64,000 bases of DNA from the NCBI GenBank assembly GCA_963751275.1, contig CAVVTZ010000002.1, positions 59,954 to 123,953 on the forward strand, written 5' to 3'. The notes beneath the pieces were generated by a model, which searched no databases, had not been told where the DNA came from, and saw only the letters and a program-made list of their open reading frames with translations. Both the position numbers and the translations under genes were made by a program. The stretch's first letter is position 1. Every line of letters starts with the position of its first letter. This document shows, one piece after another, positions 1 through 15,184 of the stretch. Source of the stretch: an uncultured Gemmatimonadaceae bacterium. GTDB lineage: Bacteria; Gemmatimonadota; Gemmatimonadetes; Gemmatimonadales; Gemmatimonadaceae.

Positions 1-672
1 GTAGGCCTTGCCGGCCTCGAGGTGCAGCGGCTTGAGGATCATCGGCTTCACGCTCTTCGCGTTCTGCCGCACGTCGAGCGTGATGGTCGAAGGGGCGAGG
101 TCCTTGTAGCCGGCCTCGTCGGTGAAATCGACGCCCTTGAACAGCGCCGTCTTCTCGCCGAGGATGGCGAAGTCGGCGTTCTTCACGGTGGGCGATGCGT
201 TGATCACGCGCAGCCGGGCCTTGCCCGAATCCGGTTCCACGTCGTCCCGCACGACCTTGAGCTGCGTGCCCCCCTTGCCGTCGGGCAGCACGAGCGCGGT
301 GTAGCGGATGCCATCGGCCATCATCTCGTGGTCGTCGGCGAGCACGTTGTTCTGGTCGGCGGTGAGCACGCGCAGCGCGATGAGATTGTCCTTCACCTCC
401 GCGTACGGCGTGACCTGCTTGTACAGCACATCGCTGAACAGTGTGCGGTCGTCGCCGGTCAGCACGACGTGGTGATCGGACGGCAGCGCATTGACGACGC
501 GCACCATCGACTTGCCGGCGCGCGCGGCGTCGGTGCCGGCCGGCGAGACGGAGGCGCCGCCGTTCGCGGTGCTGACCACGGGCTGCGCGGTCTTTGCCTC
601 ACGGCACGCGGCGGCGGCCACGACGAACAGGGCGAGCGCCAGCATCCGGGTGGAATCGATCGTGTTCCGCAT
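1..672 (-). CDS. DUF4397-domain lipoprotein (3' end beyond window)
   Basis: Read manually: MRNTIDSTRMLALALFVVAAAAC (lipobox), then VRVVNA and KARLRVINASP repeats typical of DUF4397; not in ORF track because it runs off the edge. Confidence 0.75.
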   Translation of the reverse strand, partial: MRNTIDSTRMLALALFVVAAAACREAKTAQPVVSTANGGASVSPAGTDAARAGKSMVRVVNALPSDHHVVLTGDDRTLFSDVLYKQVTPYAEVKDNLIALRVLTADQNNVLADDHEMMADGIRYTALVLPDGKGGTQLKVVRDDVEPDSGKARLRVINASPTVKNADFAILGEKTALFKGVDFTDEAGYKDLAPSTITLDVRQNAKSVKPMILKPLHLEAGKAY

Positions 673-677
673 GGCGC

Positions 678-887
678 TCACATCGTCTTGACGTTGGAGC
701 GCTCGAACTCCGCGACCTGGCGCTCGATCTCGTCGCGGCCCTCGCCGTACTTCCGCTGGAGGACGCCCACGAGCTGATCGCGTTTTCCGGCAATGCGCTC
801 GAGGTCGTCGTCAGTGAGCTTGCCCCATTTCTCGCGCACCTTGCCCTGCATCTCCTTCCATGAGCCTTCGATCTGATTCCAATTCAT
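678..887 (-). CDS. csbD: CsbD/YjbJ family general stress protein
   Basis: MNWNQIEGSWKEMQGKVREKWGKLTDDDL...G.RDQLVG.LQ.KYG; GGAGG upstream. Confidence 0.93.
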   Translation of the reverse strand: MNWNQIEGSWKEMQGKVREKWGKLTDDDLERIAGKRDQLVGVLQRKYGEGRDEIERQVAEFERSNVKTM

Positions 888-915
888 ACACGCCTCCATT
901 TGTTTTCGGCGAAGA

Positions 916-1001
916 GAAACACAAAAGGCGCGCCTGAGCGCCGCGTGTGCGGCGTTCTAGCGCGCCTTCGACTGGCAGCCCCACTTCGCTGCCCGGCAAG
1001 G
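916..1001 (-). promoter_or_regulatory. Conserved attenuator-like leader RNA, copy A (upstream of csbD)
   Basis: CCTTG-CCG-GGCAGC/GCTGCC-AGTCGAAGGCGCG...CGCGCCTT-TTGTGTTT on the minus strand. Confidence 0.75.
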
Positions 1002-1083
1002 CGACCCGGCCACCGACCCCCGGGCCTCGGTCCTTCCTGAACTTCCTTCCTACCCTACGCCACACCCCACGGTTCCGTTGCCG

Positions 1084-2187
1084 TCACGAGTCCAGCAAGA
1101 CCGCCACCGGCTTGAGCCGGTCCACCTGGTCGCAGATCACCTTGATCATCACGGTGAGGGGCACCGCGAGGATCGCCCCCGCCACCCCCCACATCCACGC
1201 CCAGAAGATCAGACTAACGAATACCGCCACTTTGTTGAGCGGCAACCCGCGGCCGAGTACCAGCGGCGTAACGATGTTCCCGGTGAAGGTATGGATCGTG
1301 AAATAGACCGCGCTCACGATCAAAGTCTTCTCGATCCCATCGAACGTGATCAGGCACGCGCCGCCGATCAGCACCATGCTAATGAACGCGCCCACGTACG
1401 GGATGAAATTCAGCACCGCCGCCACCGCGCCCCAGAGCGCGCCGTTCGGCAGGCCGGCGATGGCGAGCAGTCCCCACGTCGTGAAGCCAAGACCGAGACT
1501 GATCACGGTGGTCAGCCCCAGATAGCGCGCGGTCTGATGCTCCGTCTCCGCCACGGCGTGCATGATCCGCTCCTGGTCCGCCCGCTCGGCGAGGATCATC
1601 GCCACCTTGCGCTTGAAGAGCTGATCGGTGGAGGCGAGGAAGTAGGTGAGGAAGAGCACCGTGAAGAATCCGGCCAGCGCGTTCATCGTGCCGCTCGTGA
1701 AGCGGGACATCAACGCGGGATCCTGCACCGCCACCTTCATCGTCGATCCGGTCGTCGAGCTCGCCGCGCTCGACATCTGCTCGGCGGTCTGCTGAATGGT
1801 GGTGATCGGCCGCACGAGCTTCCGGATCTTCTTCTGCAGTTCCGGCACCGTCTCGGGCGCGCGGCTCAGCCACTCCGACGCGGGGCGCGCGAGCAAGACG
1901 CCGGCGGCGCCAAGCAGCGCGGCGCTCCCGAACACGAGCACGGCCGCGCCGACCACGACCGGCACGCCGAGCCGGCGCAGCCAGCGCACTCCGGGTCCGA
2001 AGAGCAGACTCAGGAGCACCGAGATGGCGATCGGCACGAGCAGCGCGGAGGCCCATTTGAGGATCGCGAGCGAGACGAGTACGAGCAGCGCGATCTGCGG
2101 TGAATTGCGGCGGAAGGTCTTCACGACTGGCGCGCTCACGCGATGGACGCTCTCCCGCACCTCGAGCACGAGCGGGGCGGCGCTCAT
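1084..2187 (-). CDS. AI-2E family (PerM-like) transporter
   Basis: Multi-TM protein with LNFIPYVG and WMWGVAGAILAVPL motifs. Confidence 0.9.
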   Translation of the reverse strand: MSAAPLVLEVRESVHRVSAPVVKTFRRNSPQIALLVLVSLAILKWASALLVPIAISVLLSLLFGPGVRWLRRLGVPVVVGAAVLVFGSAALLGAAGVLLARPASEWLSRAPETVPELQKKIRKLVRPITTIQQTAEQMSSAASSTTGSTMKVAVQDPALMSRFTSGTMNALAGFFTVLFLTYFLASTDQLFKRKVAMILAERADQERIMHAVAETEHQTARYLGLTTVISLGLGFTTWGLLAIAGLPNGALWGAVAAVLNFIPYVGAFISMVLIGGACLITFDGIEKTLIVSAVYFTIHTFTGNIVTPLVLGRGLPLNKVAVFVSLIFWAWMWGVAGAILAVPLTVMIKVICDQVDRLKPVAVLLDS

Positions 2188-2447
2188 GCCGCGGCCCGGT
2201 CCTGCGGCACGCGCGCGCTGCGCGACGTGCGCATCCGGCGGAGCACTTCTCGCGCGCGGCGCACATGGCGCCTCCGCTCGATGAGCACATCCACGGCGAG
2301 CGCGAGCACGAGTCCGATGCCCACGAGCGCCATGACGCCGTAGAGCATCGCGCGCCCGCTGCCCACCGGCGCCGTGTTGATCCGCGAGATCCCGAGCGCC
2401 GCCGCGGCGGCGCCTTGCAGGATGAGTACGACGGCTGAGAATCGCAT
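2184..2447 (-). CDS. Small two-TM hypothetical membrane protein
   Basis: GAGGTG RBS; two hydrophobic segments; stop overlaps the AI-2E start. Confidence 0.6.
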   Translation of the reverse strand: MRFSAVVLILQGAAAAALGISRINTAPVGSGRAMLYGVMALVGIGLVLALAVDVLIERRRHVRRAREVLRRMRTSRSARVPQDRAAA

Positions 2448-2452
2448 GGCGA

Positions 2453-2644
2453 TCACCTCGCGCGTTCAGTGGCGGACTTGTTCACCCAGAGGGGAAGGCC
2501 GGCCGGCAGCGCGCGCGCCGCGGCGATGAGCAGGCGCCGCACTTCCGACGCCGGGTTCTTCGCTTCGCGCCGGCGCTCGAAGGCCTGCTGGGACATTGAT
2601 TCGGTTGCCGATCCACCGCATTCGGACTGCTGCTCTTGGTTCAT
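2453..2644 (-). CDS. Small hypothetical protein (63 aa)
   Basis: MNQEQQSECGG...; GAGGAG RBS; directly downstream of leader copy B. Confidence 0.5.
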   Translation of the reverse strand: MNQEQQSECGGSATESMSQQAFERRREAKNPASEVRRLLIAAARALPAGLPLWVNKSATERAR

Positions 2645-2670
2645 GGCTCGCTCCTCGCGTGCGGGTGCCG

Positions 2671-2756
2671 GAAGAACGAAGGCGCGTCGGCCGCCACCGC
2701 TAGGTTGGCGACCAACGCGCCTTCGACTGACGAAGCCTTCGCTTCGCCCGACAAGG
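2671..2756 (-). promoter_or_regulatory. Conserved leader RNA, copy B
   Basis: CCTTG-TCG-GGCGAAGC/GCTTCGTC-AGTCGAAGGCGCG...CGCGCCTT-CGTTCTT. Confidence 0.72.
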
Positions 2757-2822
2757 GGGACCGGCCATTGCACCGGCCCTTCCGTCATCTATGACTGCAC
2801 CGCCCCGTAGGGCCGAAATTGT

Positions 2823-2972
2823 CTACCGCGACTTCGTGCTGCGCTTGCGGTTCGACTTGCCTGCCTTCTGAAGGGCGATCGCCACCGCCTGCTTCTGCGG
2901 CTTCCCCTCCTTCATCTCGGTCTTGATGTTCTCCGAGACGGTCTCTCGTGACGATCCTTTCTTGAGCGGCAT
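2823..2972 (-). CDS. Small basic protein, DUF6496-like (49 aa)
   Basis: Read manually: [59 protein letters not shown]; below the ORF-track cutoff. Confidence 0.8.
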
Positions 2973-2994
2973 GGTCTCCTCCACCACGATCACG

Positions 2995-3077
2995 GAAAAC
3001 AAAAAAGGCGCGAGAGATCGTTGTGGCTGATCTCTTCGCGCCTTCGACTCGCGAGTCTCTTCACTCGCCCGCCAAGG
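2995..3077 (-). promoter_or_regulatory. Conserved leader RNA, copy C
   Basis: CCTTG-GCG-G-GCGAGT/ACTCGC-G-AGTCGAAGGCGCG...CGCGCCTT-TTTTGTTTT. Confidence 0.78.
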
Positions 3078-3220
3078 TGGCCGCGTGAGCGGCCTATGTC
3101 GTACTACCTGTCACCAAGCTACGTGTTCCCGGGATTCGCGCAAGGGGGGCCCGGGATGGAATCCATGTGACGCATTGCACAAACGCGCGGCCCCGGGCAC
3201 GCGGCGTGTTCATGTCTATA

Positions 3221-3365
3221 GAAGGACAACAAACCGCTTTGACAGGATTGACGGGATGAACGGGACAACTGCAGGATGACTGCCCTGCGCCTGGCGCGCA
3301 GGGCAGTCATCCTGCAGTTGTCCCGTTCATCCCGTCAATCCTGTCAAAGCGGTTTGTTGTCCTTC
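3221..3365. repeat. Perfect 70-bp inverted repeat with 5-nt loop
   Basis: 3221-3290 is the exact reverse complement of 3296-3365. Confidence 0.95.
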
Positions 3366-4093
3366 ATACGTGCTCAAGGAGGAGCTCGAGTTTGTGCCGC
3401 AGATCCCCCAGCGCCTTCGACTTGAACGCCCCCTTGGTCTCTTCCAGCACCGTGACCGTCTCCTTCACCGCCATCTGGAATTGCGCGCCGCGAGGGCAGT
3501 TCATCAGCTGGCACGGATGCTGGTCTACGGTCTGCTTCGACAGCGCCTTCCCCAGCTGTTCCAGGTCGGTGAGCGACCCCATCACGTTCCGCAGCGTGAG
3601 CGTGAGGAAGAGGTCCACCGGCACGGCGCCCGCGCCGCCGCCGAGCTTGGAGATGTGCTGGAACTCGTCGCGCCACGAACTGAGCCGCTCCTCCGTCTTC
3701 CGCATCGCCTGAAAGGACCGGAAACGCTCGACCGCGCCCCGCACCCGCTCGAGCAGCTCGGAGAACGCCACCGGCTTCGTGAGATAGGCCACGACGGGCA
3801 GATCGATGCACGCGATCGCGCTGCGCACGGATGGGAATCCCGTGAGGATGATGATCGGCAAGCCCCCGGCCTGCGCGGCGATCTGCCGCACCAGCGCCAG
3901 ATCCGAATTCCCGGGCATTCTCGAGATCGGTGATCAGCAGATCGAAATCGCCGGCGCCCGCGGCCCGCAGCGCCTCCGCGCCGTCGCGCACCGTCACGCA
4001 CTCGTAACCCTCGCCGCGCAACAGATCGGCGGTCGCGCTCGCGAACGTCGGTTCATCGTCGGCCAGCAGGATCTTCCCACGGATATCGGTCAC
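3364..4093 (-). CDS. Response regulator (REC plus atypical helical output domain); 1-nt frameshift at ~3919
   Basis: ILLADDE...FDLLITDLE|MPG...IIILTG...AYLTKP split across two ORFs; GTG start overlaps the kinase stop. Confidence 0.85.
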
Positions 4094-6984
4094 AGGCTCT
4101 CCTCCTTCATTGAATGCAATGGCAGCGTGACGACGAATTCGCATCCTGCGCCGTCCACGTCGTGTACCGCGATGGTGCCGCCGGACGCCGTCACCGTGCG
4201 GCGGACGAGCGCGAGGCCCAGCCCCATGCCGCCGGTGCGGAGGCGCCCGCTCTTGGTGCTGTAGAACGGCTCGAAGATCCGCTCCCGCGATTCCGGCGGG
4301 ATCCCCGCGCCGTGATCGCGCACCAGCAGTTCGAAGTGCTCGTCGCGCAGCAGCGTCTGCACCACCACGATGCCGCCGGCGGGCGATGCTTCGATCGCGT
4401 TCTGCACCAGGTTGTACACGATCTGACGCAGCAGCGCCGCCGGGATCGGCAGCACAGTCGGGCCGGGCCCCAGCACCACCTGGACCTTCACGCTGGTCGC
4501 GCGGTTCACCTGCTCCAGGAACGCCACGGCATTGCCGATCACCGTGGCCGGCGACGCGCCCGCGTGTCCGTCGTGCTCGGGACGGTACGTCTCGTACAAC
4601 TGCCGCGTGACCGCCGCGATGCGCGCGACCTCGCGCTCGATCGCGCCCACGTACTTATAGTGCGGATGCGTCTCGGGGATCGCGCCCTTGATGAGCAGGA
4701 ACGAGTTCTGGATCCCGGCGAGCGGGTTGTTGATCTCGTGCGCCACCTGCGCCGCCACGCGCCCCATGGTCGTGAGCGTCTCCACTTCGCGCAGCGTCGC
4801 CTCGGCGCGGCGCCGCGCCGACAGATCGCGGGCTTCGAGCAGGAGCTGCGTGTCCTCCTCGGTCTCGCCGGTGAGCGGCTTCACCGCGATCTCGAGATGC
4901 ATCTCGGCGCCGCTCGCGAGCGTGAACTCCTGCTCGTACCGGCGCGTGAGTCCCCGCACCGCCGCCGACACCGCGGCGCGCAACCGCTCCTGCGCCGGCA
5001 CATTCCCGTTCCACCAGAGCGTGTTCCATACCAGCCGGCCGCGAACGTCGGCGTCCGCAATGCCGAACTCGCCGAGCGCGTGCTGGTTCACCTCCACCAC
5101 CGCGCCCGCGCGGTCGAGCAGCAACTGGTACTGGAATCCGCTGTCGAAGATCTCGCGGAATCGCTGCTCCGCCGCTTCCCGCGCCTGCGCCGCCGAGCGG
5201 GCGACGGTCACGTCCGCCTTGATCCCCACCATGCGCGCCGGATGACCCGACGCCGTGCGGTCCACCACGCGCCCGCGGTCCACGATCGTATGCCATTTTC
5301 CGTCGCGCGCGAGCACACGATATTCGGCATCGTAGCTCGGGCGCGCGCCGGAGAGATGATCCGCGATCTCCTGGGCGAGCCGCGGCTGGTCATCGGGGTG
5401 CACGAGCGCCATCCACGCGTCACGGATCGGTGGCACCGCGTCGGGATCGTAGCCCAGATACCGCCAGATGCCCGGGCTGTGCACCGACGCGCCGGTGAGC
5501 AGGTCCCATTCCCACACCCCGTCCGTCATGCGCTCGAGCGCCTCGCTGATGCGGGAGCGCTCGGCCGCCCGCGCGCCGCGCAGCGCATGCTGCGCCAGGA
5601 GCACGCTCACCGGCACGAGTGCGCTCACCGCGAATCCCATGAGCAGCACGAGCAGCGGCAGGCTGGACCGCACGCCTTCGATCGTGCTGCGCGTGGGCCA
5701 CGCCGACAATGTGAGATGGACCTCGCCGAGCTGCAGGTCGAGCCATTGCAGCCACTCGCGCGTGCGGTCGGAGTCCGGCGACGGCCCGGCGAGCCGGCCG
5801 GCGCGGCCGATGATGGCGTACCGGAACCCGCGCGATGTGTCGGGGATCACATCCTGAAAGAGACGCGCGGTGCGCATTACGCCGATCATCGAGCCGGTGC
5901 AGATGGTCCGGATGCACGCCGGCGCGAGGATGACGAAGCGCTTGCTCGCCGAATCCAGCGGCAGATACGCCATGCTGTCGGGCAGCCGGTGGTTCGCGTT
6001 CACATAGGCGATCGTCACGGCGTCCGCGCCGACACCGGCCAGCGAGCTCGACGCGGCGGTGTCGATCACGCCAAGCGCGGAGATCCAGCCCGCGCCCTCG
6101 AGTCCCGGCACATCGCGCTGCAGCGCGCTCACATCGCGGCGCTGTTCATCCAATGTCGCGCCGTTCGCGCGCCACTCGCTCGCCCGGTGCAGCGATCGCG
6201 CGGTGCTCACCGCCTCGCGCACGAGCACGCGCCTCCGTTCCTCCCCCGCCTGGCGCGTGAGCGCGAGGATTTGGTCGTTCTCGCGCGCGGTCAGGCCACG
6301 CCAGAGCATGAACACGGTCACGACGCCGGCGATGCCGAGTGCCGCCGGCAGCCACGCCGCCGAGTCGCCAGAGAGCAGGCCCCGTGTCCAGACGAGCGCC
6401 ACGTAGCAGCTGCCGATCAGGAAGCAGGACAGGAGCATCTGCATGGAAGGGCCGGCGCCGAGCATGTCCATCGTGGTCTTCGTGATGCCGGTGGCCCGCG
6501 CGATGAGCAGCGTCGCCGCGAGCGCGAGCAGGATGAAGCCCGCGATCCCCACCGATGCATCTTCCGGCAGCAGGCGCCGGCGCGCGGAGACGATGATCAG
6601 CGGTGCCGACGCCGCGAGGATGAGCACCGCCGACGAGAACGACATCACGTCGCGCGAAATGGGCAGCGACATCAGTTGCGCGCCGATGCTCAGGACCGCC
6701 GCGCTCGCCGCGATCGCCGCCGACAGGAACGCCGACCGGTAGCGGAGCTGCAGGAACTGCCAGAGCGCGAATCCCACCGCGACGAGCGCGATGGACCCGA
6801 GGAAGGGCAGCCGCGGCCAGCCGATGAGAGGCTCGCCGAGGCGCTCGAGCCCGGGCAACTCGCCCAGGAGGCCGGCGAGCCCCGCCACACCGGACAGCAC
6901 GGCGAACACGTACCCCGACCGGTACGCCACGAAGGCGAACGGTCCGGTGAGTTCCGGCCGGCTCGGACTTCCGGATTCCCTCAT
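4090..6984 (-). CDS. Membrane-bound PAS-PAS sensor histidine kinase
   Basis: N-terminal TM bundle, two PAS/PAC domains, AHEINNPL H-box, NLVQNAIEA, DHGAGI, FEPFYSTK, GMGLGL. Confidence 0.93.
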   Translation of the reverse strand: MRESGSPSRPELTGPFAFVAYRSGYVFAVLSGVAGLAGLLGELPGLERLGEPLIGWPRLPFLGSIALVAVGFALWQFLQLRYRSAFLSAAIAASAAVLSIGAQLMSLPISRDVMSFSSAVLILAASAPLIIVSARRRLLPEDASVGIAGFILLALAATLLIARATGITKTTMDMLGAGPSMQMLLSCFLIGSCYVALVWTRGLLSGDSAAWLPAALGIAGVVTVFMLWRGLTARENDQILALTRQAGEERRRVLVREAVSTARSLHRASEWRANGATLDEQRRDVSALQRDVPGLEGAGWISALGVIDTAASSSLAGVGADAVTIAYVNANHRLPDSMAYLPLDSASKRFVILAPACIRTICTGSMIGVMRTARLFQDVIPDTSRGFRYAIIGRAGRLAGPSPDSDRTREWLQWLDLQLGEVHLTLSAWPTRSTIEGVRSSLPLLVLLMGFAVSALVPVSVLLAQHALRGARAAERSRISEALERMTDGVWEWDLLTGASVHSPGIWRYLGYDPDAVPPIRDAWMALVHPDDQPRLAQEIADHLSGARPSYDAEYRVLARDGKWHTIVDRGRVVDRTASGHPARMVGIKADVTVARSAAQAREAAEQRFREIFDSGFQYQLLLDRAGAVVEVNQHALGEFGIADADVRGRLVWNTLWWNGNVPAQERLRAAVSAAVRGLTRRYEQEFTLASGAEMHLEIAVKPLTGETEEDTQLLLEARDLSARRRAEATLREVETLTTMGRVAAQVAHEINNPLAGIQNSFLLIKGAIPETHPHYKYVGAIEREVARIAAVTRQLYETYRPEHDGHAGASPATVIGNAVAFLEQVNRATSVKVQVVLGPGPTVLPIPAALLRQIVYNLVQNAIEASPAGGIVVVQTLLRDEHFELLVRDHGAGIPPESRERIFEPFYSTKSGRLRTGGMGLGLALVRRTVTASGGTIAVHDVDGAGCEFVVTLPLHSMKEESL

Positions 6985-7000
6985 GGCACCGTGGTCGGAT

Positions 7001-7084
7001 GAACGAAAAAGGCACGAACGCCCCGCCGTCTTGGCGCAGGGATCCGTGCCTTCGACTTGCGGAGCATTTCTCCGCCCGCCAAGA
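7001..7084 (-). promoter_or_regulatory. Conserved leader RNA, copy D (upstream of kinase/RR operon)
   Basis: TCTTG-GCG-G-GCGGAG/CTCCGC-A-AGTCGAAGGCACG...CGTGCCTT-TTTCGTT; compensatory change in the terminator stem. Confidence 0.75.
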
Positions 7085-7226
7085 CCGAGTGACTATACGC
7101 TCTACCTTAGTAAGGTATATCGCGCGCCGGCGGACCGCGCAAGCCGTCGCGAACGGCGCTCTTGCGCCATGGAACAACGCGGCCTACGTTGCGATAGAAG
7201 ACGATGACGCCCTGTTTCGCGGGGCA

Positions 7227-7313
7227 CCTTGGCGGACGAGCGTTGTGCGGCTCGCCAGTCGAAGGCGCGATGACGGCTCCCACTGTGGAGCGGTCCCGCG
7301 CCTTTTTTGTTTC
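7227..7313 (+). promoter_or_regulatory. Conserved leader RNA, copy E (upstream of DUF1328 operon)
   Basis: CCTTG-GCG-GACGAGC/GCTCGCC-AGTCGAAGGCGCG...CGCGCCTT-TTTTGTTT. Confidence 0.78.
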
Positions 7314-7361
7314 CCGGCGGCGCCGCGCCGCCGGTCCATTCCGATCCGAAGGAGGTGCGTC

Positions 7362-7541
7362 ATGTTGCGTTGGGCCCTTGGATTCCTCGTGCTGGCGCTG
7401 ATCGCCGCGTTCTTCGGCTTCGGCGGCATCGCCGCCGCATCCGCCGGCATTGCGAAGACGCTGTTCTTCCTCTTCCTTCTCATCTTCGCCGTCACGCTCA
7501 TCCTCGGCCTCATGGCCGGGAACAAGATCGCGAGCCCATGA
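7362..7541 (+). CDS. DUF1328 (UPF0391/YtjA) small membrane protein
   Basis: MLRWALGFLVLALIAAFFGFGGIAAASAGIAKTLF; GGAGG RBS. Confidence 0.93.
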   Translation: MLRWALGFLVLALIAAFFGFGGIAAASAGIAKTLFFLFLLIFAVTLILGLMAGNKIASP

Positions 7542-7554
7542 CGGTCACGCACCG

Positions 7555-7983
7555 ATGAGCCCCGGCGCGCCACGCAGCGCGTTCTCCACCGGGTTCCGCC
7601 GCTTCGCGGAACGCACGGAGGTGTTGCTTGGCTCGCCGTGGGCCTTCGGCGCGGCGCTCGCTTCGGTCGCGATCTGGGGCGCACTGGGACCGCGGTACCA
7701 CTACTCGGAGACCTGGCAGATCGTGATCAACACCGGCACGACGATCATCACCTTCCTGATGGTCTTCCTGCTGCAGAACACGCAGATGCGCAGTTCCACC
7801 GCGCTGCATCTCAAGATCGACGAGCTGCTGCGCGCCATCCAGGAGGCACGAACGGGCCTCGTCGGCCTGGAGAAGATGCCCGACGAACGGCTGGAAGAAG
7901 TGGCCACCGAGTTCCAGCAGATCTCGGACGCAGCGCAAGACACCCGCACCCCCGCACCAATCACCCGCATTCAGGGAGCATGA
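7555..7983 (+). CDS. Low-affinity iron permease family protein
   Basis: GSPWAF...YSETWQIVINTGTTIITFLMVFLLQNTQ...ALHLKIDELLRA. Confidence 0.9.
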   Translation: MSPGAPRSAFSTGFRRFAERTEVLLGSPWAFGAALASVAIWGALGPRYHYSETWQIVINTGTTIITFLMVFLLQNTQMRSSTALHLKIDELLRAIQEARTGLVGLEKMPDERLEEVATEFQQISDAAQDTRTPAPITRIQGA

Positions 7984-8369
7984 CCATGGCACACGACAAC
8001 GCACTCTCCGGCGCGATGGAAACCACCCGCGACACCCTCACCGACGCCACCGCGAAGGTGCAGGACAAGGTGTCGGACCTCGGCCGCAAGGCGTCGAGCA
8101 AGTTCGAAGCCGGCCGGCTCGCCACCGCCGACAAGCTCGAGAGCGCGGCGGAAACGCTGCACGATCGCGTGAACCGCTTTGGCGAGATCGGCCACGACAC
8201 GGCCGACAAGGTGGACGCCACCGCGCGATACATCCGGAAGAACGGCGCCAAGGAGATGGCGTCGGATGTGAGTGAACTCGTGAAAGCGCATCCCGGCAAG
8301 GCATTGCTCGTGGCGGCCGCTGTCGGCTTCCTCGCCGCCCGCGCGTTCCGCAGCAGCGCCAGTGAGTGA
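7980..8369 (+). CDS. ElaB/YqjD/DUF883-like tail-anchored protein
   Basis: Helical body with C-terminal VKAHPGKALLVAAAVGFL anchor. Confidence 0.75.
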   Translation: MTMAHDNALSGAMETTRDTLTDATAKVQDKVSDLGRKASSKFEAGRLATADKLESAAETLHDRVNRFGEIGHDTADKVDATARYIRKNGAKEMASDVSELVKAHPGKALLVAAAVGFLAARAFRSSASE

Positions 8370-8760
8370 GCCCGCGGTCGTGCGCGGCGGTACGCGGGGC
8401 GGCGATGGCCGCACCGTGGCCGCCGTCGTGCACGACATCTTCGGCAACGTCGACCGCATGATGCGGTCGGAGGTGCGCCTCGCCATCGAAGAGGCGCGCG
8501 AGGAGATCGGAACGGCGCGCGACTCCGCCGCGTTCTTCGCCGCTGGCGCGGCGTTGTGCGGCTTCGCCATCGCGTTCGTATTGGTCGCTGCGTTCCTGTA
8601 TCTCGCGACGGTGATCGCGCCGTGGCTCGCCGCGCTCGCCGTCGCGATCGTGGCGGCCGGGGCGTCCACCGGCGTGATCCTCACCGGCCTCAAGCGCATC
8701 CGGCGCGCGCGATCGTCGCGCGCGCTGCAGCTGGTCTCTCACACGGAGCACGCACCATGA
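8362..8760 (+). CDS. Holin-like (superfamily III/YqjE-like) two-TM protein
   Basis: MRSEVRLAIEE followed by two TMs; canonical position between DUF883 and DUF3618 genes. Confidence 0.75.
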   Translation: MSEPAVVRGGTRGGDGRTVAAVVHDIFGNVDRMMRSEVRLAIEEAREEIGTARDSAAFFAAGAALCGFAIAFVLVAAFLYLATVIAPWLAALAVAIVAAGASTGVILTGLKRIRRARSSRALQLVSHTEHAP

Positions 8761-9140
8761 TCACGCAAACGCACCGCCTCGAACGCGAGATCGCCTCCGA
8801 GCAGGACGCGCTGGGCGAGAACCTGCGCGAGCTGGAAGTCCGCGTGCGCACGGCGGCGGACTGGCGCGAGCAGGTCCAGCGCCGCCCGTGGGTCATGGTG
8901 GGGCTCGCCTTCGGCGGCGGCGTGGTGCTGTCGGCACTCGCGGGACCAGGCCCGCGCCGCCGGCGCCGAACGCGCCGCGCGGAACTCGCCGGTGACGCGC
9001 CGCGGGAGAGCGCGCCACCCACCGATCCGGACGACACCTGGCGCCGGTTCAAGGGCGCGCTGCTCGCCGCGGCAGCGGTGGAGGCCGCCAACCTGGTCAG
9101 TCAAGTACTGCCCAGCTTTCGTGATGAGTTCGAGACGTGA
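8757..9140 (+). CDS. DUF3618-like protein
   Basis: LEREIASEQDALGENLRELE...RPWVMVGLAFGGGVVLSAL. Confidence 0.65.
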   Translation: MITQTHRLEREIASEQDALGENLRELEVRVRTAADWREQVQRRPWVMVGLAFGGGVVLSALAGPGPRRRRRTRRAELAGDAPRESAPPTDPDDTWRRFKGALLAAAAVEAANLVSQVLPSFRDEFET

Positions 9141-9195
9141 CTCAGAGCTGATCCGACGGGAGGGATGAGAACAACCGGCAAGGGAGGATGCTCAC

Positions 9196-9624
9196 ATGCC
9201 GATCATGACGCATCGCAAGCGGGACATCGCGCTGTCGCAGCTGGAGACGGCGCTGCGATTGCACGATGAACTCGCGCACGACTACGCCGTGATCAACCTC
9301 GCCGGCGCGGCCGAGCGGATCCTGGGTGGCATGCTCGCCGATCAGAACGTGTCCGGCCGCTTCCCGAAGGTCCGGCGATCCACGCGCCAGCTGCAGCGCT
9401 GGCTGCGCCGCGTCTCGCGCCGCTCCAGCGGGCGCCAGCGCGCGCTCACGGCCGCGCTGCGCGCGGTGGACGATCATGCGCCCGGTGATCCGCTGGTGGT
9501 GGTGTTCGACGCGCGCGCACAGGCCGCCGAGCTGCTCCACCGCGCCATCGTGCAGTTCTGGGCGCTCGAGCGACTGGCGACGCCGCGCATGGTCGCGTTC
9601 TCGGCGGCCCGCGCCGCGACCTGA
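9196..9624 (+). CDS. Hypothetical protein
   Basis: GGAGG RBS; KRDIALSQLETALRL...VINLAGAAERILG. Confidence 0.55.
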   Translation: MPIMTHRKRDIALSQLETALRLHDELAHDYAVINLAGAAERILGGMLADQNVSGRFPKVRRSTRQLQRWLRRVSRRSSGRQRALTAALRAVDDHAPGDPLVVVFDARAQAAELLHRAIVQFWALERLATPRMVAFSAARAAT

Positions 9625-9631
9625 GCGCGGC

Positions 9632-10834
9632 TCAGCGGTCGAAGGCGAACATCGCTGCGTCGCGCTCGGCGCGCCCGGTGTGCACCGCCGTGATCAGGCG
9701 CGCGGCGATCATGCTGAACGTGATGCCGTTGCCGCCATATCCGAGCGCGAAATAGGCGTTCGGGCAGCGCGCGTTCGGGCCGATGAACGGAAGGCCGTCT
9801 GCGCTCTCGCCGAAGGTGCCCGCCCACGCGTAGGCGGCGTCGAGCGCGATCTCCGGGAAACATCGGGCGAAATTCTTGTGGAGCGCGGCCGCCTTCGCCG
9901 CGAGCTTCGCATCGCGAAGACGGGCGTTCTTCCACGGGATGTCCGCGCCGCCGATCATCGCGCGATGATCGGCGGTGGTGCGGAAGTAGTGGTAGGGTCG
10001 CGCCGACTCCCAGATGAGCGCCCGGTCGGGCCACCCGGCGTAGCTCGTGAGCGGTTCGCTCACCATGGCATACGTGCTGTGCAAGGCGCCCACCCGCCGC
10101 CCGAGGAATCGCTCGGAGTCGTACCCCGTGGCGAAGACGATCCGGTCGGCGACGACCTTCGGCCCGTCCGCGGTGTGCAGCCGCATGCGCCGCCCCGCCG
10201 CCTCGAAGCGCACCATCTCCGTGCGCTCGTGCACGCGTGCGCCGTGCACGATCGCGTGCGCCAGCAGCCGGTGCGTGAAGCGCACGGGATCGATCTGCGC
10301 GTCGCCCTGCGACACGATCGCGCCGGCCGCCGGGAGCGTGGACCGCTTCGCGATCGCGGCGCGGTCGAGATACTCCACGTCGAAGCCGTGCGCCTCGAGC
10401 GACCGGAAGACGCGCTGGAGCCGCGGCAGATCCCAGCGGCGCCGCGCGAGGTACCAGCTGTCGCGGCGGGCGAAATCGCACGGGTCGCCGATGTCGAGCG
10501 TGAGCCGCCGGATCGACTCGACCGCGTCGAGCCCGAGCCGCAACGCGCGCACGGCGTTCGCTTCCCCGACTCGCGCGATCAGGTCGGGCAGCTCGACGTC
10601 CACTTCGTATTGGAGCAGGCCGGTGCTCGCGGCGGTGCTCGCCGCGGCGATGTCGCCGCACTCGAGCACGACGACATCCACCCCGGCATTGGCCAATTGG
10701 TGCGCCACGAGCGCGCCCGTGATCCCGCCCCCGACGACGGCCACTTCGCAGCGTTCGTCGCGCTTGAGCGCGGGATACGCCGCGAGGATGCCGTTCTTGA
10801 GCAGCCAGAAGGGCTGCCCCGAGCGCAGCTTCAT
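9632..10834 (-). CDS. FAD-dependent oxidoreductase (DAO/PuuB-like)
   Basis: VVGGGITG dinucleotide motif, ASTAASTGLLQYE, LGYGGNGITFS. Confidence 0.88.
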   Translation of the reverse strand: MKLRSGQPFWLLKNGILAAYPALKRDERCEVAVVGGGITGALVAHQLANAGVDVVVLECGDIAAASTAASTGLLQYEVDVELPDLIARVGEANAVRALRLGLDAVESIRRLTLDIGDPCDFARRDSWYLARRRWDLPRLQRVFRSLEAHGFDVEYLDRAAIAKRSTLPAAGAIVSQGDAQIDPVRFTHRLLAHAIVHGARVHERTEMVRFEAAGRRMRLHTADGPKVVADRIVFATGYDSERFLGRRVGALHSTYAMVSEPLTSYAGWPDRALIWESARPYHYFRTTADHRAMIGGADIPWKNARLRDAKLAAKAAALHKNFARCFPEIALDAAYAWAGTFGESADGLPFIGPNARCPNAYFALGYGGNGITFSMIAARLITAVHTGRAERDAAMFAFDR

Positions 10835-10844
10835 CGCCGCCGGA

Positions 10845-11339
10845 TCAGCCCGGCTCGGTGATCCGCGGCGGGTCGATGCCGAGCGCGGTGGCGAGATCCT
10901 CGAGATGCTCCTGCTCATCCTTGAGGATCTCGCGGATGTGCTCGCTCATCGCGTACTCGCCGAGCGCCTCGCACTGCTTCACGCGCTTGCGGTATTCCAC
11001 GATCGTCACGCGCTCGTTCTCGAGGTCGAAGCGCAGCATGTCGTCCGCCTTGCCCGACGTCTTCACGGCTTTCGCGACCACCGGCGGATCGCCGCCCAGG
11101 TAGTCGATCTGTTTGGCGATGATGATCGCGTGCCGCAATTCCTCGCCCGCGTGCTTCTCGAGCTCGGCGGCGATCGCCATGTACGCGGCGCCCTTGAGCA
11201 CCTGCGAGTAGACGACGTAGGCGATGATCGCCTGGTACTCGCGCGAGAGATCCTCGCCGAGCGCGGCGATGAGATCGGCACGCGTCACGGCGGGGGAGGC
11301 GGGGGCGCTGGCGATAGGGGGCGGGACTTTCTTGGCCAT
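10845..11339 (-). CDS. Ferritin-like/bacterioferritin-like protein
   Basis: EDLSREYQAIIAY...EELRHA...IDYLGG.P...ENE...DEQEH di-iron motifs. Confidence 0.88.
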   Translation of the reverse strand: MAKKVPPPIASAPASPAVTRADLIAALGEDLSREYQAIIAYVVYSQVLKGAAYMAIAAELEKHAGEELRHAIIIAKQIDYLGGDPPVVAKAVKTSGKADDMLRFDLENERVTIVEYRKRVKQCEALGEYAMSEHIREILKDEQEHLEDLATALGIDPPRITEPG

Positions 11340-11368
11340 GGTTCGAGGTCCGTTGGTTGGTGGTGGGA

Positions 11369-13279
11369 TCAGTCGGCGGCGCCGAGCCGGCGCCGGACCG
11401 CGGGAGTGACGGCGCGCCGCGCGGCGGCGAAGCCGCGCCACGGATCGGTCTGCTGGCGCTCGATGCGCTCCGGCACATTGCGCACGTTGAAATGATCGAA
11501 GCGCCGGTCCTCGTCGAGCTCGTTCCAGTGGATGGGCGTGGCCACGGGCGCGCCGGCGCGCGCGCGCACGGAATAGGGCGCGACGGCCGTCGCGCCTTCC
11601 GCGTTGCGCAGATGGTCCACGAAGATCTTTCCCGTGCGCCGCGACTTGCTCGCCGTGGCGGTGTACCGGTCGGGCGCCGCGTGGACCATTGCGTCGGCCA
11701 CGGCGCGGGTGAGCGCCTTGGCGTCCTTCCAGGTGATCGTCGCGCGGATCGGCACGACCACGTGCAGCCCTTTGCCGCCCGTCGTCTTGAGGAAGGCCTT
11801 GAGCCCGGCCGACTCGAAGGTCTCGCGGAGCGCGAGCACGGCGGTCACGAGATCGCGCCAGGAGATGCGGTCGTCGGGATCGAGGTCCATGATGAGGATA
11901 TCGGGGCGCGCGAGCTGCGGCGCGCGCGAGCCCCAGGGATGCAGCTCCACCACACCCCATTGCACCAGCGCGGCGAGCGCCTTCGCGGAGCCGGCGCTCG
12001 CATAGAGCGCGGCGCCGCTGCTCTCCTGCACGCGCACCCGCTGCACCGCTTCATCGATGGACTGGTCCGCGTGTTTCTGGTAGAAGCATTTCTCGCCGAT
12101 GCCATTGGGGCACCGGAGCAGGCTGAGCGGCCGGTGGCGGAGATGCGGGAGCATGACGGGCGCGATGCGCGCGTAGTACTGCGCCAGCTCGAGCTTGGTC
12201 GGGCCATCCGGCGGGAAGAGTTGTTTGTCCGGGTGCGAGATCCGGATGCCCGACACGGATCCGGCGGCCGCGGCGGCGCGGGCGGCGCTCGCGCGGCCGT
12301 TCTTCACGGCCACCGGCCGCTCGCGCACCACCTCCGATGCTTTCTTGTCCACGCGTAGCCCCTTGAAGGAGGGATGACGCAGCGCGCCGTCCGCGCTCCA
12401 CTCGGTGAAGTCCACTTCGGCCACGAGGTCGGGCCGCACCCAATGCACGCCCTTCGCCATCGCGCCGCGCGGCGGATCCGTGAAGGGCGTGCGCGCCCGA
12501 GCGCGGCGCTTGAGCTTGCCCGTGATCTCGTCGAGCGTGGCGGCGTCGAAGCCGGTGCCGACGCGGCCCGCATAGCGGAGTTTGCCGCGATCGTACACGC
12601 CGAGCAGGAGCGCGCCGAATCCCGCGCGGCCCCCCTGCGGATCGGTGTAACCGCCCACCACCAGCTCCTGGCGCCGCGTGCATTTCACCTTCACCCAGTC
12701 GCGCGACCGCTCGCCGCTGCGGTAGGGCGAATCCGCGCGCTTCGACATCGCGCCCTCCAGGGAGAGCGCGCACGCCTGCTTGAAGAACTCGGCGCCGGAA
12801 CCGCCCGCCTCCGGCCCCACGCGCACGTGCTTGGTGCCCCGCCCCACGATCTTGTGCAGGCGCTTCTTCCGCTCGGTGAGCGGCAGCGCACGGATGTCTT
12901 CGCCATCCACATACATGACGTCGAACAGGATGAGCGTGAGCTGCGCGGCGCGCGGCGACGCGATGGCGTTCTGGAGCGCCTGGAAATCCGAGCGCCCCTT
13001 CGCGTCCAGCGCGACCAGCTCGCCGTCGAACCAGCCATTGGCCACGCGCAGCCGCGCGAGATCGGCGGCGATCGCGCCGAGCTGCGCCGTCCACTCTTTG
13101 CCGTTCCGCGAGAAGATGCGCGCGTCGCCATCCTCCACGCGGCAGAGCATGCGATAGCCATCGTACTTGATCTCGTGCAGCCAGCCGGCGCCCGCCGGCG
13201 CGCTCTTCACGAGCGTCGCGAGCATCGGCTGCATCGCCGCCGGAATGGGGCGGCGCGACACCTTCAGGGTCGCGCTCAT
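11369..13279 (-). CDS. ligD: NHEJ DNA ligase D (ligase plus polymerase domains)
   Basis: EIKYDGYR, WVKVKC, LRHPSFKGLR, ISHPDK, DLDP, KTTGGKGLHV. Confidence 0.93.
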   Translation of the reverse strand: MSATLKVSRRPIPAAMQPMLATLVKSAPAGAGWLHEIKYDGYRMLCRVEDGDARIFSRNGKEWTAQLGAIAADLARLRVANGWFDGELVALDAKGRSDFQALQNAIASPRAAQLTLILFDVMYVDGEDIRALPLTERKKRLHKIVGRGTKHVRVGPEAGGSGAEFFKQACALSLEGAMSKRADSPYRSGERSRDWVKVKCTRRQELVVGGYTDPQGGRAGFGALLLGVYDRGKLRYAGRVGTGFDAATLDEITGKLKRRARARTPFTDPPRGAMAKGVHWVRPDLVAEVDFTEWSADGALRHPSFKGLRVDKKASEVVRERPVAVKNGRASAARAAAAAGSVSGIRISHPDKQLFPPDGPTKLELAQYYARIAPVMLPHLRHRPLSLLRCPNGIGEKCFYQKHADQSIDEAVQRVRVQESSGAALYASAGSAKALAALVQWGVVELHPWGSRAPQLARPDILIMDLDPDDRISWRDLVTAVLALRETFESAGLKAFLKTTGGKGLHVVVPIRATITWKDAKALTRAVADAMVHAAPDRYTATASKSRRTGKIFVDHLRNAEGATAVAPYSVRARAGAPVATPIHWNELDEDRRFDHFNVRNVPERIERQQTDPWRGFAAARRAVTPAVRRRLGAAD

Positions 13280-14124
13280 GCGTGCTTGCGGCGGCGCGCC
13301 GGTGTGTGGCGTGCCGCCGTCGCCGGCTTCTCGGCGAGACTGCGCTTGAGCAGCGCCGTGAGATCGAGCACCTTGCCGCCGCCGGTCTCGCGCGCGGGCT
13401 TCTCCTCGGGCTCGGCGATGCGCTCGGTGTCGCCCCGCTTGATCTTCTTCTTGATCAGCGCGAGCAGGTCGCGGTGGTACGTGTCCACGAAGCCCTTGGG
13501 ATCCCACTCGGCGGTGAGATCGTCCACCAGGCGCTTCGCGAGCTGGAGGTCCTTCGCCGACACGGCGGCGGCTTTCATGCCGGCGGGGGGGAGCTCGAGT
13601 CCCTTCGCGCCGCGCAGCTCGCCGGCGTAGCGCATGATGACGAGCATGAGTGCCGGGCCGTTCACCGTGATCGCCGCGAGATGCTGGGTGGTGTGCAGGA
13701 CGATCTGCGCGATCGCGATGAGGCCGGTGTCGCGGAGCGTCTCACGCAGGAGCGCATAACTTTTCGAGCCGCGCTTGCCGGGCACGAGGTAGTACGGCGT
13801 CTCGTAGAACCAGACGGGCACGTCGCCGGCCTTCACGAAGGTGTGGATGTCGATCGTCTGCGTGGCCTTCACGTTCGCCTTCTGGAAATCCGCGTCGGTG
13901 AGCACCACGTACCGGCCGTCCTCGTACTCGTGCCCCTTCACGATGTCGCCCCACGAGACTTCCTTCCCGGTGCTCTTGTTGTAGCGCTTGTAGCCCACGG
14001 GCGACAAGTCGTGCTTGTCGAGCATCGTGAACGAGAAGTCGCGGCGGTCCTCCGCCGGCCGGAGTTCCACCGGAACACTGACCAGCCCGAAGGAGAGCGA
14101 GCCGCTCCACAGTGCGCGTGCCAT
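13276..14124 (-). CDS. ku: NHEJ Ku protein
   Basis: MARALWSGSLSFGLVSVPV...IVKGHEY...PYYLVP...DLTALLKRSL. Confidence 0.95.
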   Translation of the reverse strand: MARALWSGSLSFGLVSVPVELRPAEDRRDFSFTMLDKHDLSPVGYKRYNKSTGKEVSWGDIVKGHEYEDGRYVVLTDADFQKANVKATQTIDIHTFVKAGDVPVWFYETPYYLVPGKRGSKSYALLRETLRDTGLIAIAQIVLHTTQHLAAITVNGPALMLVIMRYAGELRGAKGLELPPAGMKAAAVSAKDLQLAKRLVDDLTAEWDPKGFVDTYHRDLLALIKKKIKRGDTERIAEPEEKPARETGGGKVLDLTALLKRSLAEKPATAARHTPARRRKHA

Positions 14125-14151
14125 GATCGGTCCTCCATCGCGTACAAAGCG

Positions 14152-14233
14152 GGAACGAAAAAGGCGCGAGAGATCGATGGGTCCGATCTCCTCGCGCCTT
14201 CGACTCGCGGTCCGCTTGCTCCGCGCGTCAAGG
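14152..14233 (-). promoter_or_regulatory. Conserved leader RNA, copy F (upstream of ku-ligD operon)
   Basis: CCTTG-ACG-CGCGG/CCGCG-AGTCGAAGGCGCG...CGCGCCTT-TTTCGTT. Confidence 0.78.
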
Positions 14234-14363
14234 TGGCCGCTGGAGCGGCCGCTGTGCTACATTGGAATATTGTGCTCCCGCTCCGGCGCCGCAAGGCGCC
14301 GGGATGCAGTCCTATCTACTAACGCCCCTCAGTTCCAAACGCGTACGACCAACGACTGTTTCT

Positions 14364-14909
14364 CTATTTCGTGATATCGATCGCCGTCGACTCGTTGTAG
14401 CTCAGGATCATCTGGTCGCCGACCTTCGCGCTGTTGAACGCCGTGACGCCCGGATTGACCTTGAACGAGAACGATTTCCCCGCCGAATCGGTGAATCCGA
14501 TCGTGCGCGTCGCCATGTCCACGGACGTGATCTTGCACGTCACGTTGACGACCTTCACCTCATCGAGATCGGGCAGTCCGGCGGGCGTGATCGTCACCGT
14601 TGGCGGCGGCGCCGCTGCCGACGCATCGCCCGGCCGCCGCAGATACAGCACCACCGACTCCACGAAGCGCACGGTCACGGTGTCGCCCACCTGCACCTTG
14701 TACAGGTTCGCCGCCTTCGCCGGGATCGTGAACTGGTGGAGCGCACCATGCGGTCCCTGCACGATGAGTTGATGCGCCTGATAATCATTGCTCAACACGA
14801 TCCCTCTCCACGCGGACACCGGACTCGCGACCTTCGTCTTCGGCGCCTGCGCCCCGACCGCGCTCGCGATCAGGACCGCTCCCAGAATTCCTGTGATGAC
14901 ACGACGCAT
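14364..14909 (-). CDS. Secreted protein with two beta-rich (OB-like) repeats
   Basis: Signal peptide MRRVITGILGAVLIASAVGA; duplicated KVQVGDTV/KVGDQM motifs. Confidence 0.7.
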   Translation of the reverse strand: MRRVITGILGAVLIASAVGAQAPKTKVASPVSAWRGIVLSNDYQAHQLIVQGPHGALHQFTIPAKAANLYKVQVGDTVTVRFVESVVLYLRRPGDASAAAPPPTVTITPAGLPDLDEVKVVNVTCKITSVDMATRTIGFTDSAGKSFSFKVNPGVTAFNSAKVGDQMILSYNESTAIDITK

Positions 14910-14974
14910 GTTCACCGACCTCGGCATTGTTGTAGTAGGCTTCATCCAACGTCTAACGTCCAACGTCCGTGTTG

Positions 14975-15184
14975 TCAGCCCTCGTATTTGAACGACACCT
15001 TCACCTTCGCCCGGTACGCCTCGACCTTCCCATCCTTCATCGTCATGTCCATCTGAACGACTTCAGCCACCCGCAGGCCGCGGATCGTCTTCGCCGCGCG
15101 CTTCACCGCCGCGGCCGCCGCCTTCTCCCAACTCTCGGTGCTCGTGCCCACCAGCTCGATGACCTTGTAGACGCTCTCCGCCAT
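14975..15184 (-). CDS. Dodecin family flavin-binding protein
   Basis: SVYKVIELVGTSTESWEKAA...YRAKVKVSFKY. Confidence 0.93.
   Translation of the reverse strand: MAESVYKVIELVGTSTESWEKAAAAAVKRAAKTIRGLRVAEVVQMDMTMKDGKVEAYRAKVKVSFKYEG

Follow-up and report, generated by a model that had tools for sequence, protein, structure and literature searches.

What is the short sequence that stands before one general-stress gene after another in a Gemmatimonadaceae genome, and what might operate it? The DNA in question is a stretch of 64,000 nucleotides (nt), referred to below as the window, from an uncultured Gemmatimonadaceae bacterium (GenBank assembly GCA_963751275.1, contig CAVVTZ010000002.1, positions 59,954-123,953 of the forward strand). 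It contains six copies of an element of ~85 nt that a preliminary description had taken for a structured leader RNA in which an intrinsic terminator competes with an alternative 5' pairing. Judged by sequence comparison, the element is a real structured leader RNA family, undescribed in Rfam 15 and in the full-text literature searched; it marks a stress regulon of the Gemmatimonadales and is itself tightly tied to an orphan response regulator, which probably flips the leader's switch. The Gemmatimonadota are a common, rarely cultured soil phylum whose gene control is almost unexplored, and neither the full-text literature searched (supplements aside) nor Rfam 15 yielded an RNA motif or stress regulator described for them.

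Anatomy of the leader RNA

A covariance model built from the six copies (R1) matches exactly those six in the window, at 77.7-87.7 bits, in the places and on the strands originally proposed (Table 1); its few reverse-strand matches there are weak and are echoes of the palindromic terminators. The six can be aligned over ~90 nt with a mean column identity of 71%. Their core word AGTCGAAGGCRCG, allowing at most one mismatch, occurs seven times in the window where 0.65 occurrences are expected, and 0 of 100 shuffles reach seven; the seventh match (3410-3422, one mismatch) was set aside as chance, since it lies inside the response-regulator reading frame without any flanking part of the element. 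No known family accounts for the copies: a scan of the whole window against Rfam 15 gave 0 matches at gathering thresholds, and at E <= 10 over positions 1-16000 it gave only sub-threshold chance matches, of which the only one to fall on a copy is a plant microRNA (miRNA) family (24.9 bits, on the terminator of copy B).

The extent first recognized, ~85 nt, holds for the core of the element and misses a further hairpin, P0, that lengthens it by ~20 nt in the 5' direction in five of the six window copies (copy D is without it). P0 varies freely in sequence, has 5-9 pairs and closes a loop of 3-10 nt; its position is what is kept, for it ends 0-2 nt 5' of the CCUU strand in 128 of 154 unique copies (136 of 154 by a second way of counting), and upstream of it there is no conserved column. 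After P0 come, in order, a 5' switch strand (CCUU), the core, hairpin P2, a middle strand (AAGG), the terminator, a 3' CCUU and a U-rich tail. In the putative recognition core G-N-C pairs with G-U-C and a nearly invariant G stands opposite a nearly invariant A, and a single bulged purine, usually G, separates GUC from AAGG. The core closes P2, a hairpin of 5-8 pairs whose sequence is different in every copy; the arm pairings given for it in the preliminary description hold in the copies. The conserved word AGUCGAAGG joins P2 to the terminator, whose GCGCG...CGCGC stem is variable in its upper part and whose 3' end reads ...CGCGCCUU followed by a U-tract. Copies A, C, D, E and F thus have the form of intrinsic terminators, with stems of at least 12 pairs that end in ...CGCGCC and are followed by UU and a U-rich tail. 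The compensatory GGCACG/CGTGCC exchange that had been reported in copy D is real.

Two other interpretations of the conserved words were rejected. An open frame runs through the element only in copy C (by eye) and is not conserved, so the element does not encode a leader peptide, and CCUUG...AGUCGA is not a promoter, since its spacing varies between 20 and 23 nt and the intervening stretch covaries as a hairpin.

Two mutually exclusive foldings

The AAGG strand can pair either with the 5' CCUU, which extends P2 and gives an antiterminator, or with the 3' CCUU, which gives the terminator at the U-tract. Among 46 distinct copies, which come from the genus and from one neighbouring it, ~89% pairing is seen in either structure, with covariation scores about twice those of shuffled alignments and 0 of 500 shuffles reaching them (here and below, shuffle counts are not probabilities, because the sequences are related). 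The larger collection, of 148 distinct copies from 80 species loci, has 88.8% of its hairpin and terminator cells paired and 92.1% of the cells of the seven antiterminator-specific pairs, although the alignments were fitted to the model and such pair counts are biased towards it. Covariation in these 148 copies is 0.452 for hairpin and terminator (shuffled mean 0.193) and 0.168 for the antiterminator (shuffled mean 0.101); again 0 of 500 shuffles reach either score, and when the pairing is slid by 1-3 columns the scores are at most 0.087 and 0.046, respectively. Pair 8:49, for example, is GC in 115 copies, GU in 12, AU in 11 and something else in 10, and pair 10:48 appears as six standard pair types.

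The switch strands themselves also change together. The first A of AAGG is altered in 15 copies; the terminator partner pairs in all 15, the 5' partner follows in six (three C-G, three G-C), makes a U-G wobble in four and is left unpaired in five, and the switch triples C-G-U, C-G-C and G-C-G are all seen. Most telling is the copy that accompanies a divergent regulator in genome G222 (locus L170): it has switch strands CUCG/CGAG/CUCG and keeps P0, P2, core and U-tract, and the copies of genome G015 (loci L018, L023 and L068), which precede small proteins of no known family, have altered strands CCAG/AUGG.

When the RNA is ended four bases 3' of AAGG, it is predicted to fold as the long hairpin closed by CCUU:AAGG in seven of the eight copies of this genome (copy B was mis-cut by our script and is not scored as antiterminator), and the best predicted fold of the full RNA is P2 plus terminator in eight of eight, at -35 to -60 kcal/mol. 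By these predictions the terminator is the favoured fold of the full RNA, and the unaided state should therefore be termination, with the genes behind it off. Two mutually exclusive helices with one strand in common are both kept in evolution, and covariation, three-strand change and folding energies agree in bearing out the proposed intrinsic terminator and its alternative 5' CCUU:AAGG pairing with a bulged G. That the leader is a regulated terminator/antiterminator switch we consider, on this comparative evidence, very likely. Besides the alignment bias already mentioned, what counts against it is that antiterminator and terminator overlap by just four pairs, that switch pairs are broken in eight of the 148 copies at 7:52 and in five at 6:53, and that the U-tract of copy B (CCUUCGUUCUU) is weak.

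A terminator that is the stable fold in all eight copies would be expected to yield short transcripts, and the leaders might mainly produce ~100-nt terminated small RNAs that act in trans, or might be constitutive insulators, with no regulated switch at all. Copies C, B and A follow one another on the same strand, each of them also ending the preceding unit, and multi-copy, genus-specific, leader-like RNAs exist, such as the Bartonella family presented in the accessible portion of PMC5387305. P0, the conserved core and the covariation of the 5' strand with that of the terminator would, however, be superfluous in a plain terminator, and an invariable sense orientation 12-45 nt before start codons argues for control in cis, so that we regard this explanation as quite improbable. 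Among sequencing runs listed with this sequence there is no RNA run; those listed are soil and rhizosphere DNA runs in which it has a small share.

Copies in the rest of the genome and in other genomes

The preliminary description had seen no copies outside the stress island, which is correct for the window and incorrect for the genome. In the whole source genome (3.1 Mb, 14 contigs, 83% complete) R1 finds eight copies, two of them on contigs other than that of the window (Table 1); weaker matches on contigs C14, C7 and C11 (E 0.002-0.4) are coding sequence or lack the motifs and were dropped. Rather than a six-copy, island-bound element, this is a family found in two families of the Gemmatimonadales. 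Of five other genomes of the genus, four have matches, 2-13 of them each, and 47 copies from five relatives were the basis of a second model, R2. In a sample of 151 genomes of the family, R2 gives strong matches (E < 1e-6) in 11 genomes of seven genera; matches in G070, G071, G092, G141 and G143 (E ~1e-4) are bare terminators without P2 and were counted as false. In a sample of 151 genomes of the phylum, 17 have matches at E <= 1e-5, namely three of 31 in the same family and 13 of 71 in a second family of the same order, and ten other families have matches in 0 of 48 genomes. Carriers have 1-13 matches each; these searches score 29 candidates per genome, so that copy numbers are lower bounds and a copy not found is not necessarily absent. 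A further 80 loci from 80 other species, fetched by way of the regulator domain described below, gave 160 matches. In the genomes sampled, the leader is thus known from two families of one order only, the Gemmatimonadales.

This distribution also bears on whether the element is merely a dispersed repeat, of the repetitive extragenic palindromic (REP) or miniature inverted-repeat transposable element (MITE) kind, that is intergenic by chance. The element is multi-copy and rich in palindromes, and a separate palindromic repeat family adjoins copy C (see below). Random orientation and gene context, which the preliminary description had named as the mark of such a repeat, were looked for and not found: there are only eight copies in the genome, all of them in sense, 12-45 nt before starts, at genes with a common functional theme. 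From copy to copy the variable parts change in sequence yet stay paired, orthologous positions are kept across genera, and there are no terminal repeats or target duplications, all of which makes a dispersed repeat barely credible.

Linkage to a histidine kinase and a response regulator

Copy D leads the operon of a PAS histidine kinase and a response regulator, and copy C lies directly 3' of the regulator gene. The pair had been described as one downstream unit among several; this is true of its place behind copy D, and its role appears larger, since pair and RNA are linked across genomes. Both the RNA and the regulator's output domain are present in 10 genomes of the family sample, the RNA alone in one (G015), the regulator alone in none and neither in 140, and in 10 of 10 domain carriers a copy lies 100-250 nt 3' of the regulator stop codon on the same strand. 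The phylum sample has 16 genomes with both, one with the RNA only (G256), two with the regulator only (G222 and G170) and 132 with neither; the regulators of G222 and G170 are distant homologs (E ~1e-18), and in G222 a divergent leader copy lies 96 nt behind the regulator gene. Even within genera RNA and regulator vary in step, one genus having both in three of four genomes and neither in the fourth, and another having both in two of five. In the species loci a copy lies 75-303 nt after the regulator domain in 55 of the 78 that have enough flanking sequence (one further such copy is among ten matches that were not carried into the alignment), and a copy occupies the kinase-leader position in 33 of 65. 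This co-occurrence and linkage of a leader RNA with a PAS histidine kinase and a response regulator is new here.

The reading frame of the regulator shifts in the window after the residues ITDLE, the first 75 residues lying in one frame and the rest in that of the open reading frame (ORF) 3364-3918. Either the assembly is at fault here or the gene is a pseudogene in this metagenome-assembled genome; in the single-contig relative G005 the ortholog is intact (243-260 amino acids (aa)). Its C-terminal output domain is predicted by structure modelling to consist of four helices, and has as invariant blocks RNVM, a C-x4-C pair followed by R-G, and F-x-S-x2-L-x2-LR. The intact ortholog matches in Pfam, at E <= 1, only Response_reg and, weakly, FleQ, with no ANTAR domain (PF03861); a profile of the output domain finds no solved structure among PDB sequences, and comparison with Atlas clusters gave none (score 0.81). 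The domain is shared by 688 database proteins, and those listed carry only a receiver annotation. The lack of a match to any known family leaves room for the output domain to be of a new kind. A Foldseek search with the whole model is dominated by receiver domains and has RNA-bound EutV only at rank 36 (TMq 0.54), a likeness that we discount because a long linker helix might suffice to produce it in any regulator. A genome-wide search of four genomes for PF03861 gave 0 matches, as did its control.

Proposed mechanism and alternatives to it

The tight linkage to one kinase/response-regulator pair points to a protein trigger, and the following scheme would join the observations. The leader would be off by default, the full RNA folding as the terminator. 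On a signal, presumably stress, the PAS kinase would phosphorylate the linked response regulator, which would then bind the P1/P2 hairpin at its conserved base, possibly along with the neighbouring P0, and hold CCUU:AAGG closed; the terminator would thereby lose its four bottom pairs beside the U-tract, and RNA polymerase would read through. Through the copies before the kinase operon the signal would raise its own sensor, and through those behind the regulator gene and before further regulators it would be amplified and spread as a cascade. One signal might in this way open a general-stress set comprising CsbD, DUF1328, DUF892, Ku-LigD and further regulators. That the linked regulator is itself the direct RNA-binding trigger is, from comparative data of this kind, about as probable as that it is not, and for the explanation as a whole, a regulon-wide attenuator opened by the linked regulator, we see the chances as evenly balanced.

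A broader proposal is that antitermination governs the general stress response of the Gemmatimonadales, either in place of an alternative sigma factor or in addition to one, and that the output domain is a new RNA-binding module that would clamp the three-hairpin leader at the head of each regulon unit, its own operon and downstream transcription factors among them. We advance this tentatively, as falling somewhat short of an even chance. If it were right, the leader would define a new family of structured RNAs in which the evidence for two alternative folds is unusually clear, the output domain would be a candidate for a second type of RNA-binding domain at the output end of response regulators, next to ANTAR, and the copies would provide a map of a stress regulon (CsbD, DUF1328, DUF892, Ku-LigD, sigma-54 and LuxR regulators) where none is known.

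Several observations on the regulator do not favour this role. In 23 of 78 loci no copy lies directly behind the regulator gene, with the model and threshold used. G015 (100% complete, three copies) and G256 (97% complete, two copies) have no detectable regulator, even by profile search. Co-occurrence among relatives is not independent, and joint inheritance in one stress island could produce it. The C-terminal domain is modelled with low confidence, at predicted local distance difference test scores (pLDDT) of 52-81 within the whole protein and 55.9 alone, and its function could just as well be to bind DNA or a protein.

The copies in G015 and G256 that do without the regulator are relevant to two other views of what closes CCUU:AAGG. 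One is that the leader is a riboswitch: the irregular hairpin would serve as a small aptamer whose ligand, a stress-related ion or small molecule, stabilizes CCUU:AAGG, and the kinase-regulator operon would simply be one unit among those controlled. The layout of aptamer and expression platform and the conserved unpaired nucleotides at the base of the helix would suit this. So would the tandem elements, 54 nt apart, that precede DUF1328 in three relatives (L033:1501-1589 and 1643-1737; L031 and L035), where the present genome has one (copy E); tandem arrangements are seen in some riboswitch classes. Small hairpin-type riboswitches do exist, an example being the folE motif as presented in the accessible text of PMC6800512. 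Here, however, the conserved core amounts to ~12 nt in an almost continuous helix, no junction or pseudoknot was found, and the genes controlled have no common metabolite or transporter theme; nor is it to be expected of a riboswitch that it follows a single regulator gene so closely (in the phylum sample 16 genomes have both and three have one) and lies adjacent to it. A riboswitch thus seems rather unlikely.

The other view keeps a protein-dependent attenuator and gives the work to a different factor, such as an RNA-binding protein, a cold-shock-type chaperone or NusA/NusG-dependent pausing, with the linked regulator acting on DNA or on RNA polymerase. In addition to the regulator-free copies, it would explain why the regulator domain has no detectable likeness to RNA-binding folds, and the sigma-54 activators and LuxR-type regulators behind copies point to additional regulators in the regulon. 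On the other side, no further gene that co-occurs with the leader was noticed; the RNA element is the only sequence common to all units, whereas a regulator acting on DNA would require a common operator, and none was seen upstream, where two promoter-like types occur and no column 5' of P0 is conserved. Conservation at the hairpin base, moreover, argues for a specific rather than a general binder. We judge a different factor to be unlikely and prefer the linked response regulator as the candidate trigger.

Comparison with known systems

By analogy, the element would work like the ANTAR and BglG/LicT-RAT systems and appears to be a member of neither. ANTAR targets, according to the accessible text of PMC3369931, are two hairpins before a terminator, the second of which excludes it, with hexaloops that have A at position 1 and G at position 4. 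As with the ANTAR proteins EutV, AmiR and NasR, a two-component regulator is proposed here to act after initiation through a hairpin that excludes an intrinsic terminator. There are likewise two hairpins 5' of the terminator (P0 and P1/P2), the second of which shares bases with the 5' foot of the terminator; several terminators are spread across one locus, and autoregulation of the regulator's own operon is plausible. Unlike ANTAR targets, the P2 loops here are 3-9 nt long, with hexaloops in 16 of 133 and A1/G4 in 0 of these 16, and the P0 loops 3-10 nt, so that conservation lies at the hairpin base and not in the loops. The regulator is without an ANTAR domain (Pfam, E <= 1), and the genes here are stress genes, whereas ANTAR systems control nitrogen or ethanolamine genes.

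In the BglG/SacY/LicT systems a protein clamps the RAT hairpin and so causes read-through. The RAT resembles the present hairpin in being a single imperfect hairpin with bulges or internal loops that overlaps the 5' part of the terminator. Proteins of the BglG type, in contrast, have CAT and PRD domains and serve sugar phosphotransferase control, whereas the candidate here is a receiver-domain protein. RAT-like families were not among the results of the Rfam 15 scans of the window; no search was aimed at CAT domains.

In content the proposed regulon is similar to those of sigma-B, sigma-S and EcfG/PhyR, which include csbD, DUF892 genes of the yciE/F type, small membrane proteins and, in some bacteria, Ku-LigD. 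It would differ from them in its means, an RNA element that stands behind at least two promoter-like types, with control at elongation and not at initiation.

Another leader RNA for comparison is the Streptococcus YjbJ motif (PMC11109978, Nucleic Acids Research 2024), which in the accessible text of that paper is a weak riboswitch candidate with 40 representatives and one gene type that might bind a protein. It too is a two-hairpin leader with an intrinsic terminator before a CsbD-family stress gene, and the same text cites csbD as being under sigma-B control. In that portion of the paper the motif is confined to Streptococcus, whereas the present leader is found in Gemmatimonadales, before at least 10 gene types, and has three hairpins; the two are set apart here by description only.

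Genes and promoters of the regulon

The copies are all in sense orientation, as had been proposed, and end, in this genome, 12-45 nt before a start codon. CsbD, DUF892 (YciE/F) and Ku-LigD are typical general-stress or stationary-phase genes in other bacteria. The gene identities first given were right for CsbD (PF05532), the AI-2E unit, the PAS histidine kinase, DUF1328 and Ku-LigD; for the 49-aa basic protein behind copy C the label DUF6496-like is not borne out, since a Pfam scan at E <= 1 gave it no family. Coordinates are collected in Table 1.

Table 1. Leader copies and associated genes, in window coordinates unless a contig is named (C1 and C9, other contigs of the source genome)
Feature	Position	Strand	Score (bits)	P0	CCUUG	AGUCGAAGG	Terminator parts	Context or content
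Copy A	913-1004 by model, 913-1026 with P0	-	82.3	1003-1026	997-1001	965-973	hairpin 924-969, U-rich tail to 917	csbD leader
Copy B	2667-2759 by model, 2667-2779 with P0	-	81.3	2758-2779	2752-2756	2720-2728	3' strand and tail 2675-2683	between 49-aa gene and AI-2E unit
Copy C	2993-3080 by model, 2993-3094 with P0	-	87.7	3079-3094	3073-3077	3041-3049	3' strand and U-tract 2996-3009	directly 3' of response-regulator gene, leader of 49-aa basic protein
Copy D	6997-7087	-	79.5	none adjacent	UCUUG	7049-7057	U-tract 7006-7013; G-C to A-U pair, compensated	leader of histidine kinase/response regulator operon
Copy E	7224-7316 by model, 7209-7316 with P0	+	77.7	7209-7225	7227-7231	7257-7265	3' strand and U-tract 7300-7312	DUF1328 operon leader, divergent from copy D
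Copy F	14149-14236 by model, 14149-14250 with P0	-	86.8	14235-14250	14229-14233	14197-14205	3' strand and U-tract 14158-14165	ku-ligD leader
Genome copy 7	C1:32970-33055	-						precedes 56-aa cysteine-rich protein
Genome copy 8	C9:721434-721517	-						precedes large protein
csbD	681..887	-	72.7 (PF05532)					69 aa, behind copy A
AI-2E unit	1087..2644	-						63-aa ORF 2456-2644, 90-aa membrane ORF 2187-2456, AI-2E family transporter 1087-2187; behind copy B
49-aa lysine/arginine-rich protein	2826..2972	-						behind copy C
Response regulator	3367..4144	-						receiver and ~120-aa helical C-terminal domain; candidate trans-acting factor
Histidine kinase	4093..6984	-						964 aa; PAS_3, PAS_4, HisKA, HATPase_c; first gene behind copy D, candidate sensor
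DUF1328 membrane protein	7362..7538	+						59 aa, behind copy E
ku and ligD	11372..14124	-						ku 13279-14124, ligD 11372-13507; behind copy F

Stress-type genes recur behind the leaders of relatives. Near the regulator gene in other species 128 distinct downstream ORFs were called, and 96 were scanned against Pfam after exclusion of eight near-duplicates from the closest relatives and of 24 ORFs of 856-990 aa at the kinase-gene position. The 96 include 19 sigma-54 activators, 18 CsbD, 11 DUF1328, nine LuxR-type and six DUF892 proteins, five outer-membrane barrels, four DUF4397 proteins, three histidine kinases, the regulator itself (one) and one HHH protein; 19 of the 96 have no family.

At least two promoter-like patterns, recognized by eye, precede the copies. 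CTTGCGC-N17-TAnnnT is found before copies C, D, E and F and their orthologs (window 3100-3170, 7090-7225 and 14240-14300), and GGAAC-N16/17-GTAGnA before copy A (1030-1075), the C1 copy and those of several relatives; the upstream regions concerned include those at loci L007 and L008. Because two different promoter-like types precede the copies, their common element is one that is transcribed and not a promoter. A GYAG-N3-GAC box is often seen just 5' of P0 (by eye); no GG-N10-GC spacing was seen by eye in the upstream sequences, and a sigma-54 promoter 5' of P0 was therefore rejected. At 40-100 nt 5' of copies of the GGAAC type there are two or three direct repeats of words like GTTCGGGG/GTTCGGGT (L007:1590-1690 and L008:1590-1690, the C1 and C9 copies; also L042, L044, L046 and L047), which are possibly binding sites of another regulator.

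Between the regulator stop codon and the promoter region of copy C, positions 3235-3350 form a near-perfect palindrome of 116 nt with a 55-bp stem (-122.8 kcal/mol). Further copies of its inner 40 nt lie on contigs C2, C8, C12 and C14, and of its outer arms on C2 and C7, which makes it a member of a dispersed palindromic repeat family; it is also the cause of spurious miRNA matches in the Rfam scans. Behind DUF1328, the stretch 7638-8757 (+) holds a gene whose product has many charged helices in its C-terminal half, with a membrane anchor at the end, and a Phage_holin_3_6 gene, a pair that appears similar to the stationary-phase genes yqjD/yqjE of E. coli. Finally, directly 3' of ligD and on the same strand, 10848-11960 (-) encodes a 371-aa protein with a C-terminal ferritin-like/rubrerythrin domain, which possibly belongs to the leader-controlled ligD unit.

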